A stretch of DNA of 42,956 nt. Origin: a virus. Taxonomy: Duplodnaviria > Heunggongvirae > Uroviricota > Caudoviricetes. Position numbers and translations under genes: made by a program. Positions 30,850-35,924 of this stretch are shown here, in pieces (within the stretch, counting starts at the first letter, position 1; each line of letters starts with the position of its first letter). Below the pieces are notes generated by a model that did not search any database, was not told the origin of the DNA, and saw only the letters and a list, made by a program, of their open reading frames with translations. The stretch is from IMG/VR virus record IMGVR_UViG_2721755643_000001; one strand, given 5' to 3'.

Positions 30850-31379
30850 CCCTCTCCGTTACGGAAAGCGCTCTTTATCAGGCCCTCGGTGATTATCTCC
30901 GGGGGCTTTTTTCTGATGCCGGGATTGAACGAACGCAGCAGAACCAGGTCCCGATGCCTCAGGGGAATTTCATCACCATGACGGGCATTGATGTTACCGG
31001 ATTATCCACTGCGGTAGTGGCATATTCTGCGCCAGCGCAGGCTGGTGAGGGCTCTCAGCATATCACCCGTACCACAAAATGGCGTTGCCAGCTTGATTTC
31101 TACGGCCCTCACGCGGCAGATAACGCGCAGGTGCTGGCAACGCTTTTCCGGTCTGAATTTTCCGTACGGCTTTTCCGGCAGGGCGGTGGGCTGATTTCCC
31201 CGCTGTATTGCTCAGAGCCCTTTAACACCACATTCCCCAACGGTCAGCAACAGTATGAACCGCGCTGGACGCTTGATATTCAGATGCAGATTAACCCTGT
31301 GGTCACAACTTCCCTGATGTTTTTTGACAACGTGATCACCCGGACAACGGAGGCTGATAATGCCAATTCCACTCAGTAA
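30834..31379 (+). CDS. Hypothetical tail-associated protein
   Basis: 181-aa ORF immediately before the sheath-like gene. Confidence 0.5.
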
Positions 31380-32844
31380 AGATGTACAGATAAATCCCGG
31401 TGTGCTGGCTGTGGCGGGTAATGCCGTCGATCTTAACGGCCTGCTGTTGACCAGTAATCCGTTACTTCCGGTCGGCACTGTGGTTCCGTTTTCCTCTCCG
31501 GATGATGTGGCCGCGTATTTTGGTGCATTATCCGATGAGTACGCACGCGCTCAGCTTTATTTCCAGGGCTTCAAAAATGCCACCAGGACGCCGGGGCAAT
31601 TGTTGTTTTCCCGTTTCAGTCCTGCCCCATCGGCGGCCTGGTTACGTAGCGGTTCGTTTAAGGGCGCGACTGTTGAACAGCTACAAAAACTTTCCGGCAC
31701 GCTGATGCTGAGTATTAACGGGAAAAGCGTCAGCATTGAAGTGAATTTTAACGGTGTCGCCAGCTTCGCCGCTGCTGCAACGGCACTACAGACAGCGCTG
31801 ACCGCAGCAGTGGCTACAGTGGTATTCGATACCACACAGAATGCTTTTGTCATTACTGTCGCCGGGGCGAAACCCGGGAGTACCACGATAACGTTCGGCA
31901 GTGGATCGGCAGCAGAACTCCTGAAGATGACCAGTAACACCGGTGCGGTGATATCCCGGGGCGCGCCTGTATCTGATGTCCCTGACACAATGGCAGCCAT
32001 TAAGGCCGCTTCCCAGCAATGGGCGGGTTTTTCCACGGTATCTGAGGTCACTGACGAGCAACACCTGGCGTTTTCTGCATGGGCAAACGGGCAGGGCAAG
32101 CGTTACTTTTATGTGGCATGGACAACCAGCGGCAACGCCAGAGTAAAAGGCAGTACTGAACACATCGCTTACCAGATAATTGCTGTCAATAACTACAGCT
32201 CTGTTGTACCTGTTTTCGCGACTGATGGTAACCGGGCTGCAGCGGTACTGGGGTATGCAGCGTGCCTTGATTTTGTCCGACCAGAGGGGCGTGTATCATT
32301 CAAGTTCCGCGAGTATGAGGGGCTGGCCGCTGATGTTACCAGTGGCAGCGATTATGATGCGCTGATCGCCGCAGGTTACAATTTCTACGGAAAATATGCG
32401 GAAAACAGTGTGGTGGAAGATTACTGGGCGGATGGCACTATTACCGGTGATTTTAAATGGCTGGACAGTTTCTGCGGGCAAATCTGGCTGAATGCCAGTT
32501 TGCAGGGGGCGGTGATCGCGTTATTCAAGTCAAACCAGACGATCCCCTACAACAATGAAGGGCGGGCGCTGGTTGCAGCGTCAATGAGTGACGTTATCCA
32601 GCAGTACAAACGCTGGGGAGGGATCCGTGAAGGGGTGACACTGACGGAGGCGCAGAAGAAACAGATTAACAATGTTGTGGGGGCAGATGTTTCTTCAACG
32701 TTGTTTGCCACCGGCTATTACCTGTATATCGGCGATATGCTTCCCTCTTTGCGGGCAACCCGTAGCAGTCCGTCCTGTACGCTCTGGTACTGTGACGGCG
32801 GTAGTATCCAGAAACTTGTTATTGCATCCACGGAGGTCCAGTAA
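31360..32844 (+). CDS. Tail sheath protein (tentative)
   Basis: 494 aa, followed by a 148-aa tube-like gene, a frameshifted chaperone pair and the tape measure: the canonical contractile-tail order. Confidence 0.65.
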
Positions 32845-33291
32845 ATGTCGGGTAACAACAACACCATCACTGCGGCGGATGCCATTATCACGCTGACAGT
32901 GAATAATCTGTATCCCTCCGGCGTACGACTTCAGGGATTTGCAACAGATAACGTTTATGGCACCGATCCACTGGTACTGGCGGAAACTGCCCGCGGTATT
33001 GACGGTAAACTGTCCGCGGGATTTGTGTACAGCAACATTATCCAGACGTTTCATATCATGCCGGATTCCCCCAGCCGGGATATTTTTGATACCTGGTCAA
33101 CCACATCCCGGGCCAGTCGGGCTGTATTCCGTTGTAACGCTGTCGTCCTGCTTCCGGCGATTGGCCGTAAATATACCTGCGTGAATGGCGTACTCAAACA
33201 ATGGAAAGCGCTGCCTGATGCAGCTCGTACGTTGCAGCCAGGGCAGGCGGTTATTGAGTGGGAAACCATTACTCCGGAGGTTTTTAACTGA
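32845..33291 (+). CDS. Tail tube protein (tentative)
   Basis: 148 aa directly after the sheath gene. Confidence 0.6.
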   Translation: MSGNNNTITAADAIITLTVNNLYPSGVRLQGFATDNVYGTDPLVLAETARGIDGKLSAGFVYSNIIQTFHIMPDSPSRDIFDTWSTTSRASRAVFRCNAVVLLPAIGRKYTCVNGVLKQWKALPDAARTLQPGQAVIEWETITPEVFN

Positions 33292-33695
33292 TGGCCCGTA
33301 AAGAGAAATTTATCACTATTGAAGGTCAGGGACGGGATAAGGGCAAGGTATTTCATCTTACCGAAATGTCTGCCTCACAGGCGGAATGGTGGGCGATGCG
33401 TGCCATTATGGCAATGGGGCGTGGTGGCGTGGAGTTACCGGATGATGTTCGTAGTCTGGGGATGGCTGCGCTTGCCCTTGAAGGGCTGAAAGCATTATCG
33501 AAAATTCCGCCTGATGAGGCGCGTCCGTTGATGGATGAAATGATGGACTGTGTGCAGTTTGTTCCCGATCCGAAAAAACGCAGCATCCGGAGACCGCTTG
33601 TTGAAGAGGATATTGAAGAAATCATTACCCGTCTTAATCTGCGTGCGGAGGTCTTTAAGCTGCATGTGGATTTTTTCGCTACCGTCGTCAGCTAG
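33291..33695 (+). CDS. Tail assembly chaperone (short form)
   Basis: 134 aa upstream of the tape measure; contains slippery heptamer TTTTTTC near its 3' end. Confidence 0.7.
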   Translation: MARKEKFITIEGQGRDKGKVFHLTEMSASQAEWWAMRAIMAMGRGGVELPDDVRSLGMAALALEGLKALSKIPPDEARPLMDEMMDCVQFVPDPKKRSIRRPLVEEDIEEIITRLNLRAEVFKLHVDFFATVVS

Positions 33696-33919
33696 ATATC
33701 CCCCCGCGTTATCTCGACCCCGACAGACCGTTCGGGGTGGTGGATTACGTTAATGTTCCCCGTACCATTGCGACCGTTATCTCCTCCGGTAAGGCTTCAA
33801 AAGCTGAACTGGATTCTGTCCTTGGTGTGCAGGACTTATGGGATCTGCTGGAAATAATTCATGTGGATGCCCATAACGAACAGGTGATACAGGAGAACAG
33901 AAATGGCGCAGGTACTTGA
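33291..33919 (+). CDS. Tail assembly chaperone, -1 frameshift-extended form (frame 0 to 33677, then -1 frame to 33919)
   Basis: Heptamer T-TTT-TTC at 33671-33677; the -1 frame is open from there to 33919 (includes track ORF 33737..33919) and ends overlapping the tape measure start. Confidence 0.6.
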
Positions 33920-35924
33920 TGAGCTTGTTCTGTCCCTCGGGATTGATGACAGGGACTTTACTGCCGGGGAACAGGCAGTACATGCTGCCCTTAACCGGCT
34001 CACGACGGTGATGGAAGGTGTCGCTGACACATTCAGTCAGGGACAGAAGAAAACCAGTGAATCACTGGAAAAAACCGGAAAAGATGCTGATAAAACGGCC
34101 CGTCGAATGGAAGATGCCGGGAAACGGGCGTCCCGTTTTTTTTCAGGGATCCGTAGCGAGATTCTGGCTCTTGCGGGTGTCAGTCTGACGCTGGGGGGGC
34201 TGAAGAACCTGGTAACAGGTTTTGCCCGTGATCTGAACCGTCTGTCCGTGGAATCTGATGCTTTTGGCATGAAGGCCAGAAATCTGGACGGATGGTTACG
34301 GGCTGCGCGGGCAAATAATGTTGATGAAGGGGAAATGTCTGGGGCATTTTCCCGGCTTGCAAATGCAAAAGCGGCCTTCAGAGCCGGAAGGTCCTTTGAT
34401 CCTGTGTTACAGGATTTGTTTCAGGTTGCAGCCAGGGCGGGCATTAGTGTTGATTTAAATACTGACAGCACTGAAGCCATCATGCGCAAGCTGGCGGTTA
34501 TTTTTCCGCGACTGACAAAGTCCGAACAAACTGCCTACGGCAACGCGCTGGGCTTCAGTTATGCCGGACAGCAGTTTCTTGGCTCCGGTCATGCGCTGAA
34601 AGATGTGGACGAATTTACTTCCCGTTCGCAGGTTACGCCGGGGCGTACAGCGCTGGCCCGTAAGCTACGAAAAGAGCTTGTTGAGCTCGATCAGACCTGG
34701 TCCGGCATCGGGATGACGATTAGCACCACGTTGATGCCGTACGCGCTGAAGCTCAGCCACTGGCTGGAGACACTCGGTGACTGGATGCAGCAACATCCGG
34801 AGGAAGTGAACAGGTTTATCACCACATTTCTGAATGACGTTGAGTCAGTGGCCTCCCTGGCGAATAAGGCTGCCGGAGAACTGGGGGGCTGGCAGAATGT
34901 CATTATTACGCTGATCGGGCTGAAAGTGGCGTCATGGGTGCGGGGGCTGACAAAAGCCCTCAGTGGCCCCGGAGGCCTTCTTTTTGCGATAACGGCGCTT
35001 TACCCGGTTGTTGACGGATTACTGACATCCATTGTTGGCAGGGAAAATAAGGACTGGCTGGATTCACATGGTTTTTTCTGGGCTTCAGACGGGACTTTCT
35101 TTTTCAATAAGAAAGAGATGGAGACGTATCAGACAAAACTGGATGCCGGAGAAAAGCCTGGCAACATCACCCGGGCACAATCACCCACAGTATGGCAGCA
35201 GGGCATGCTGGATACTCAGGCTTCTCAGGCAACCGGGAGGGAAGCAGCCTTCGGTGAATCCTGGCTACAGGGTATGCGTGCGACGCAGGAAAAACTCGGT
35301 AATGCCATGCAAAACCGCCAGCGACCGACGAAGACCGGGGAAGCCCTGTTAGGCTGGCTGCAACCGAAACTGTCTCAACTGGAGGAAAAATATAACCTGC
35401 CGCCCGGACTGCTGCGCAGCGTTGCGATCACCGAATCCCGTGGTAATCAGTTTGCCGTCTCACCTGCTGGTGCGATGGGACTGTTTCAGTTCATGCCGAA
35501 GACGGCCAGTGAATTTGGTCTGAGGGGGAACGATGCCTTTGATCCCGAAAAAGCCGCTGATGCCGCCGCGAGAAAACTTGGTGGCCTGATACGTTTTTTT
35601 CATGGCGATCTGGCTAAGGCTCTGGCGGCATATAACTGGGGAGAGGGAAATGTTCAGCGTAAGGGACTGGCTGCTGCTCCGGAGGAGACCCGCAACTATA
35701 TTCCGCGGGTGCTGGCGAACCTGCCTTATCCGGGTGCGGCAATGGCCATACGGTCGCGCCATCCTGCGCCTGTATCGCAGTCCACCGTAACGGAAACCAC
35801 GCATATCGGGACACTGAATGTCACCACAACGTCGGACAATGTGAAGGGTATTACCGATGACGCACGTCGGCGTATCACGAATTCGGCGCTTGTGTCGGTT
35901 TATTCCAGCGGGGTAACAGGATGA
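33903..35924 (+). CDS. Tail tape measure protein with C-terminal lytic transglycosylase (SLT) domain
   Basis: 673 aa, helical Ala-rich body; C-terminal ITESRGNQFAVSPAGAMGLFQFMP...AYNWGEGN matches the SLT catalytic motif. Confidence 0.8.
   Translation: MAQVLDELVLSLGIDDRDFTAGEQAVHAALNRLTTVMEGVADTFSQGQKKTSESLEKTGKDADKTARRMEDAGKRASRFFSGIRSEILALAGVSLTLGGLKNLVTGFARDLNRLSVESDAFGMKARNLDGWLRAARANNVDEGEMSGAFSRLANAKAAFRAGRSFDPVLQDLFQVAARAGISVDLNTDSTEAIMRKLAVIFPRLTKSEQTAYGNALGFSYAGQQFLGSGHALKDVDEFTSRSQVTPGRTALARKLRKELVELDQTWSGIGMTISTTLMPYALKLSHWLETLGDWMQQHPEEVNRFITTFLNDVESVASLANKAAGELGGWQNVIITLIGLKVASWVRGLTKALSGPGGLLFAITALYPVVDGLLTSIVGRENKDWLDSHGFFWASDGTFFFNKKEMETYQTKLDAGEKPGNITRAQSPTVWQQGMLDTQASQATGREAAFGESWLQGMRATQEKLGNAMQNRQRPTKTGEALLGWLQPKLSQLEEKYNLPPGLLRSVAITESRGNQFAVSPAGAMGLFQFMPKTASEFGLRGNDAFDPEKAADAAARKLGGLIRFFHGDLAKALAAYNWGEGNVQRKGLAAAPEETRNYIPRVLANLPYPGAAMAIRSRHPAPVSQSTVTETTHIGTLNVTTTSDNVKGITDDARRRITNSALVSVYSSGVTG

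Follow-up and report, generated by a model that had tools for sequence, protein, structure and literature searches.

A predicted −1 frameshift site for short and long tail assembly chaperones in an E. coli prophage with an E217-like tail module

The tail module and the chaperone locus

The locus lies in the tail module of a viral DNA of 42,956 nucleotides (IMG/VR record IMGVR_UViG_2721755643_000001; the whole stretch analysed, hereafter the window), in which the genes for the sheath, the tube, the chaperone and the tape measure protein follow each other, tightly packed, on the + strand. The tail sheath gene (31360..32844, + strand, 494 aa) was recognized through Pfam DUF3383 (E 2e-140) and phrog_205 'tail sheath'. 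Next comes the gene that occupies the tail tube position (32845..33291, + strand, 148 aa; Pfam E217_Gp32, E 1.8e-17; phrog_1964), the stop codon of which overlaps the start of the chaperone ORF in the sequence TGATG. This G-like ORF for the short form of the tail assembly chaperone (33291..33695, + strand, 134 aa) ends with the TAG at 33693-95. Downstream, the gene for the tape measure/lytic tail protein (33903..35924, + strand, 673 aa) starts with the ATG at 33903, and its product matches phrog_2013 (E 8e-246) and phrog_2276 'tape measure' (E 1e-29), with a C-terminal SLT domain (Pfam SLT, E 8.7e-26). The pair formed by the chaperone ORF and the ORF that overlaps its 3' end is thereby placed between the tube and tape measure genes, which is the position of G/GT-class pairs.

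The 148-aa protein (32845-33291, + strand; L001:5555-6001) is named 'phage tail fiber protein' by RefSeq, after Pfam E217_Gp32. Judged by its position and size it looks like a tail tube protein and, since it adjoins the 3' end of the sheath gene and has a tube-like size, the 'tail fiber' name may mislead.

The profile phrog_1932, 'tail assembly chaperone', covers the whole of the 134-aa protein (E 3.2e-59), and the conceptual fusion of the 134-aa protein with the product of the −1 frame matches phrog_18181, a family of 170-aa proteins, over both parts. The match to curated tail assembly chaperone (TAC) families was obtained through the PHROG profiles alone and none came through Pfam, in which the short form, the −1 part and the fusion found no family even at E values up to 10. 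Searches with the chaperone returned no sequence match in the PDB, and a profile search of the PDB sequences gave a chance hit only; comparison with the solved TAC folds (HK97 gp10, 2OB9; YqbN, 3KLU) gave a weak fold match. The naming of the upstream ORF as a tail assembly chaperone in the initial annotation is sustained by the phrog_1932 profile together with the position between tube and tape measure, the weak fold match being consistent with it.

The 3' end of the 134-aa ORF reads ...CAT GTG GAT TTT TTC GCT ACC GTC GTC AGC TAG, so that the 0-frame codons GAT TTT TTC (Asp-Phe-Phe) set the slippery heptamer T_TTT_TTC (33671..33677, + strand) in the X_XXY_YYZ phase. Neither the 0 nor the −1 frame contains a stop over 34 nt (33659..33692, + strand), between the TAA of the −1 frame at 33656-58 and the 0-frame stop at 33693. 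Because this is the sole stretch open in both frames, the two ORFs are joinable by a shift only within 33659-33692, and the heptamer lies inside it. Past the heptamer the −1 frame continues as a T-like domain (33677..33919, + strand; RYRRQLDIPP...NGAGT), and the predicted long form of 209 aa would comprise residues 1-129 of the 0 frame and 80 codons of the −1 frame. The initial annotation had described a T-TTT-TTC heptamer 18 nt before the chaperone stop, and a −1 frame open for 80 codons from there and ending where the tape measure gene starts. The description holds in each of its parts: 15 nt separate the heptamer and the stop, or 18 nt when the TAG is counted; the 80 sense codons occupy 33677-33916 and are followed by the TGA at 33917-19; and the −1 ORF overlaps the first 17 nt of the tape measure gene.

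In one sequence alone, a heptamer with an open −1 frame is only suggestive. The frequency of in-phase X_XXY_YYZ heptamers in the long ORFs of the window is 0.52% per codon, which corresponds to a chance of approximately 6% for an overlap of 11 codons. The longest −1 extension found after any other heptamer in the + strand ORFs is 52 codons, versus 82 at this site in the same counting, where 82 codons in the counting used for all heptamers correspond to the 80 codons after the heptamer. It is the retention of the heptamer in 74 of 78 distinct relatives, for which a single sequence is no substitute, that brings it well beyond chance.

Conservation of the slippery site among relatives

Among 5,426 complete E. 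coli genomes, seven contain the entire region at 99.7-100% identity, and one more, the eighth, has its first 370 nt. The locus had no megablast matches in the phage collection; the relatives were reached by tblastn, the fusion used as the query yielding 134 phage records. The loci compared were 14 from phages or prophages and 97 from genomes or viral contigs, and the script-based analysis covered 110 loci, corresponding to 78 distinct sequences, from Enterobacterales, Pseudomonas, Burkholderia, Aeromonas, Vibrio, Edwardsiella, Acinetobacter, Acetobacter and Helicobacter. An in-phase canonical heptamer is present at the homologous site in the 74 distinct sequences mentioned above, a count that, as the sequences share ancestry, does not represent independent events. 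The heptamer is TTTTTTC in approximately 60 of them and TTTTTTG (four relatives), TTTTTTA, TTTTTTT or GGGTTTT in the rest.

Two of the four exceptions (L030, L091) are copies that have been truncated or interrupted, and the remaining two come from the Klebsiella phages RCIP0114 (L006:1940-1977) and ST15-VIM1phi2.1 (L007:1940-1977), in which the site reads GCT TTT GTA, leaving the tetramer U_UU.U alone; the −1 ORF of these phages is nevertheless unbroken, conserved domain included, and the chaperone carries an insertion of approximately 25 aa. In every relative the T-like homology is found in the −1 frame, with scores of 68-415 for the intact loci versus at most 25 for the +1 frame. The view of the initial annotation that this is the conserved short/long arrangement of tail chaperones agrees with the comparison of homologs, since arrangement and slippery site are both conserved among diverged relatives, with the heptamer in 74 of 78 distinct sequences and the phrog_3976 domain encoded in the −1 frame throughout.

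In three otherwise near-identical IMG/VR contigs (L031, L057, L102) the −1 ORF is shorter and reaches 19, 63 and 48 codons, respectively, beyond the stop of the 0 frame, probably as the result of indels, assembly errors or prophage decay.

These data also bear on the reading of the locus as one chaperone gene split by a 1-nt indel in a homopolymer run, that is, as a broken gene or a sequencing artefact. Homopolymers are prone to both indels and sequencing errors, and relatives in which the two parts share a single frame do exist, as described below. However, the two-frame layout recurs across many genera in independently assembled sequences (74 of 78 distinct ones), the 0-frame stop is kept 15-18 nt after the site in most lineages, and the same sequence is found in the E. 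coli genomes just described (seven complete genomes at 99.7-100% identity, and the eighth with the first 370 nt), so that a broken or misread gene is hardly credible.

Synonymous codon choice around the site was counted in 40 distinct contexts, the count being limited to those having a T-type heptamer. At the site itself, Asp is always encoded by GAT (35 of 35) and the first Phe always by TTT (40 of 40), the latter figure being partly circular, since the contexts were chosen for their T-type heptamer. The Z position varies (C in 30, A in 6, G in 3 and T in 1). Away from the site, the Phe five codons on the 5' side is encoded by TTC in 24 contexts and by TTT in seven, and nearby His, Val and Leu codons take from two to six synonymous forms. 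Synonymous positions frozen in this way are the pattern expected of a site selected at the RNA level, although the contexts come from related sequences and are not independent of each other.

The agent of the slip could in principle be RNA polymerase, which by adding one U on the T6 run would produce a minority of mRNAs with both parts in one frame and the same long protein. Such transcriptional slippage would have the same protein outcome as a ribosomal shift and would leave comparative signals of identical appearance; the site is indeed a homopolymeric T6 run (T7 in L027), and the under-representation of U7/A7 in all three frames in E. coli may reflect RNA polymerase slippage (PMC4066793). 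What the relatives conserve, however, is the in-phase X_XXY_YYZ pattern and not the length of the run, which falls to four Ts in the Burkholderia relatives (G_GGT_TTT) and in the Klebsiella phages and to five in Aeromonas, with the Z position varying freely among C, A, G and T, as expected of the wobble base of a ribosomal site. Appreciable slippage by bacterial RNA polymerase is not known on runs shorter than approximately 8-9. Since the phase of the motif is retained in relatives whose run is down to four or five Ts, transcriptional slippage is considered improbable.

The 0-frame stop is located 15-18 nt past the heptamer in most lineages, and exactly 15 nt past it in many. The 15-nt spacing is not essential, since it becomes 54-84 nt in the Burkholderia, Helicobacter, Vibrio and Acetobacter relatives. 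Within 33693-33698 of the window, and at the homologous positions of L002, L004, L005, L013, L014 and others, the stop overlaps conserved Leu/Val-Asp codons of the −1 frame, written as CTA GAT, TTA GAC or GTA GAC. Queuing of ribosomes at the 0-frame stop was considered as an aid to shifting and discarded: 15 nt is less than the ribosome footprint, and the distance reaches 84 nt elsewhere.

The 60-aa open reading frame in the −1 frame

RefSeq carries a separate hypothetical protein of 60 aa (WP_000228829.1) in the −1 frame, from a GTG start at 33737 (33737..33919, + strand), and the PGAP annotation of the E. coli genomes lists two separate hypothetical proteins. The two ORFs are joined in none of the annotated records that were fetched, and in a homolog search with the fused sequence the best 120 matches are all short forms, with no fusions among the matches listed.

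According to this annotation, the locus would contain two independent genes, one for the 134-aa chaperone and one for a 60-aa protein translated from GTG 33737. A separate small ORF is annotated not only by PGAP but also in several phage records, and the −1 part matches phrog_3976 (E 5.7e-32), which exists as a family of approximately 67-aa proteins of unassigned function. Against an independent gene, the GTG at 33737 lacks a Shine-Dalgarno sequence, the calculated duplex being worth +0.4 kcal/mol versus −10.2 for the chaperone start, and no promoter-like site is found between the two ORFs. Nor are the positions of start codons in the −1 frame conserved among relatives: Acetobacter phage phiAO1 has no start codon at all in its 109-codon −1 ORF, and prophages of Serratia, Xenorhabdus and Photorhabdus would yield only 25-42 aa from the first start past the 0-frame stop, which would cut the conserved domain. 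The second ORF thus overlaps the first in the −1 frame and is devoid of start signals of its own, as in the G/GT class.

The alignment of the fusion from 21 lineages leads to the same conclusion from the protein side. The junction is gapless (...LHVDFF|RYRRQLDIPP..., with the consensus xxRRxLDIP), and amino-acid conservation, with the motif RRxLDIPP, starts right at the heptamer, well 5' of any candidate start and hence upstream of the GTG. With the addition of the single-frame fusions of Bcep781 and Ralstonia phages, two independent genes become very unlikely. The proposal made in the initial annotation, namely that the 60-aa ORF at 33737 is the tail of the long form, is instead the one that accommodates the missing Shine-Dalgarno sequence, the unconserved start, the conservation reaching upstream to the heptamer and the single-frame fusions.

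Relatives with the two parts in one frame

In the tblastn search both parts of the query were matched in one piece in the Bcep781-group Burkholderia phages and in the Ralstonia Bakolyvirus phages. Bcep781 gp47 (170 aa, E 3e-9) and Ralstonia phage Adzire gp36 (186 aa, E 7e-16) both align with the window fusion continuously over the junction, where LHVAFLTDREPLDIP and LHAGFVVGRKPTELP of these single-frame relatives are set against LHVDFFRYRRQLDIP of the fusion. The DNA at the junction, GTG GCG TTC CTG in Bcep781 and GCC GGG TTT GTC in Adzire, contains no in-phase heptamer. The gene next to gp47 in Bcep781, gp46, is annotated as tail assembly chaperone, and its 136-aa product is paralogous to the short form (E 2e-7); next to gp36, Adzire gp37 is also annotated as tail assembly chaperone, and is known as such by annotation and position. 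In both phages (L111:2522-3441 for Bcep781 gp47 and gp46; L112:2495-3462 for Adzire gp36 and gp37) one more gene follows, and then the tape measure gene.

From the gene layout, the Bcep781 and Ralstonia phages appear to make the long and the short forms from two genes. The existence of single-frame long forms in these phages supports the notion that the two parts encoded in the window belong in one polypeptide, and the lack of a heptamer in them fits with its being kept only where a change of frame is needed. A reasonable, if tentative, possibility is that this chaperone family is a natural case of evolution switching between two routes to its short and long products, namely, in most lineages, a stimulator-free −1 frameshift at a bare U-rich heptamer, which in some Klebsiella phages would operate on U_UU.U, and, in the Bcep781-like and Ralstonia phages, a pair of genes from which the slippery site would have been erased. 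Provided that both layouts work, it could be tested directly within this family how far the short:long ratio needs to be fixed by frameshifting.

Stimulatory elements and expected efficiency of the shift

Neither the single-sequence nor the comparative approaches revealed an RNA structure at the site. Folding of the 93 nt 3' of the heptamer is no better than that of shuffled sequences (z −0.32), and the only downstream hairpin in this fold begins 28 nt after the heptamer; the 161-nt fold gave z +0.03, RNAalifold on 15 homologs gave 0 pairs, and Rfam gave no match at the site. The conserved hairpin or pseudoknot 5-9 nt 3' of the heptamer that characterizes sites of the IS3/dnaX type was not seen in these analyses. 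The stimulatory structure downstream of 33677 that the initial annotation had considered worth looking for was therefore not found by folding, RNAalifold or Rfam.

On the 5' side, a Shine-Dalgarno-like GGAGG (33647..33651, + strand) is present 19 nt before the heptamer and is a doubtful stimulator. As an element of the dnaX type it was discarded: it is found in only 12 of 42 distinct upstream contexts, Ala-Glu-Val codons explain its presence, and its 19-nt spacing falls outside the 6-17 nt range searched in PMC4066793.

The heptamer itself belongs to a class of known properties. The E. coli measurements of Sharma et al. (2014; PMC4066793), made on all heptamers, placed H_HH.U_UU.Y, which includes U_UU.U_UU.C, among the most efficient classes; U_UU.U_UU.C, which is used by IS elements, shifts at more than 0.1% without a stimulator. 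In the same study R_RR.U_UU.Y was also shift-competent, and U_UU.C and U_UU.U were the second and third best tetramers. A ribosomal slip would account for every variant seen among the relatives, since R_RR.U_UU.Y covers GGGTTTT and the U_UU.U tetramer covers the Klebsiella site. As no stimulator was found, a low, perhaps very low, shift rate is expected, with the short form in large excess by analogy with lambda, for which a short:long ratio of approximately 30:1 is reported (PMC5009743).

Proposed mechanism and comparison with known systems

On these grounds it is highly probable that a −1 frameshift at TTTTTTC yields short and long tail assembly chaperones in this E. coli prophage. Most ribosomes would read 33291..33692 and stop at the TAG, releasing the 134-aa short chaperone. 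A small fraction would slip back by one base while two Phe-tRNAs occupy TTT and TTC of T_TTT_TTC (33671-33677); the tRNAs would re-pair on TTT TTT, and reading would resume at CGC 33677 for 80 codons. The product of the slip would be the 209-aa long form, ...LHVDFF|RYRRQLDIPP..., provided with an extra C-terminal domain. If the proteins act as in lambda G/GT and P2 E/E+E', the N-terminal part shared by the two would coat the tape measure protein, the extra C-terminal domain of the long form would recruit the tube protein, and the ratio of short to long form would be set by the shift rate. What the sequences show directly is the anatomy of the site, its conservation and a −1 ORF that has no start of its own; we infer that the ribosome is the slipping agent, that it slips rarely, and what each of the two proteins does in assembly. 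In the literature on Bcep781, E217, DUF3383 and Acinetobacter phages no frameshift was found described for this chaperone family.

The reference system is that of lambda G/GT, with a −1 frameshift at G_GGA_AAG, described by Levin (1993) and by Xu, Hendrix & Duda (2004, 2013, 2014) and summarized in PMC5009743. The window shares with it an overlapping ORF pair between the major tail/tube and tape measure genes, a second ORF in the −1 frame devoid of its own start, and an in-phase heptamer near the end of the first ORF. Low-level shifting, a minor long form and the absence of both products from virions would be expected here by likeness. Unlike lambda, a siphovirus, the window encodes a contractile tail, and its heptamer is T_TTT_TTC; its chaperone has no detectable sequence similarity (no Pfam TAC match), although a weak TAC fold match is found.

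A closer likeness in tail type and heptamer is offered by phage P2, in which the myovirus tail chaperones E/E+E' are said, after Christie et al. in 2002, to arise by a −1 frameshift at T_TTT_TTG. The tail is contractile in both cases, the heptamer is T-rich and of the U_UU.U_UU.N class, and the site is found just 5' of the tape measure gene. However, the window chaperone has no match to the Pfam families covering P2 E, and the tail module of the window is E217-like (DUF3383 sheath, E217_Gp32, E217_GP41). The assignment of the locus to the lambda G/GT or P2 E/E+E' type of frameshift, as a prediction from the sequence, is supported by the position of the ORF pair, the frame of the second ORF, the slippery site and its conservation.

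An argument of the same kind was made in 2025 for the chaperone locus of Pakpunavirus and Andersonviridae, where a frameshift at a conserved GTTTTT motif was predicted by comparison (PMC12846349). There too, a 'hypothetical' ORF is taken as the C-terminus of the long form, with a poly-T motif and a −1 frame uninterrupted in all relatives. That locus belongs to another phage family, and the likeness drawn is in the type of argument. The alternative to frameshifting is represented by the two-gene layout for chaperones of T4-like phages, described by Vladimirov, Gautam & Davidson (2022) as cited in PMC10885494. Bcep781 (gp47 and gp46) and Ralstonia Bakolyvirus (gp36 and gp37) resemble it in having an in-frame long form and a separate short gene, with no frameshift site, whereas the window has overlapping frames in place of two genes.

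Implications for annotation

Frameshifting is a known phage device, and what is new is the family, in which it had not been annotated. The long form is missing from the annotation of the RefSeq E. coli genomes and of all 14 of the 14 annotated phage and prophage records inspected, its C-terminal domain being listed as an orphan 'hypothetical protein' or left unannotated. Joining both ORFs would correct the gene model of a widespread E217-like tail module with a DUF3383 sheath, which ranges over Enterobacterales, Acinetobacter, Burkholderia, Pseudomonas and Aeromonas, and one further contractile-tail lineage would join those with the near-universal chaperone frameshift. The main value is thus the correction of the annotation. 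The presence of frameshift and two-gene versions within one protein family would be a modest addition, and the understanding of frameshifting itself is unchanged.

A minor observation concerns the tape measure gene, approximately 210 nt into which a terminator-like hairpin, CGGGAAACGGGCGTCCCG, precedes a T8 run that encodes Phe-Phe (window 34113-34143, + strand). The run is T6-T7 in close relatives and is lacking in distant ones; hairpin and run could constitute an internal attenuator or a slippage-prone run, or be due to chance.
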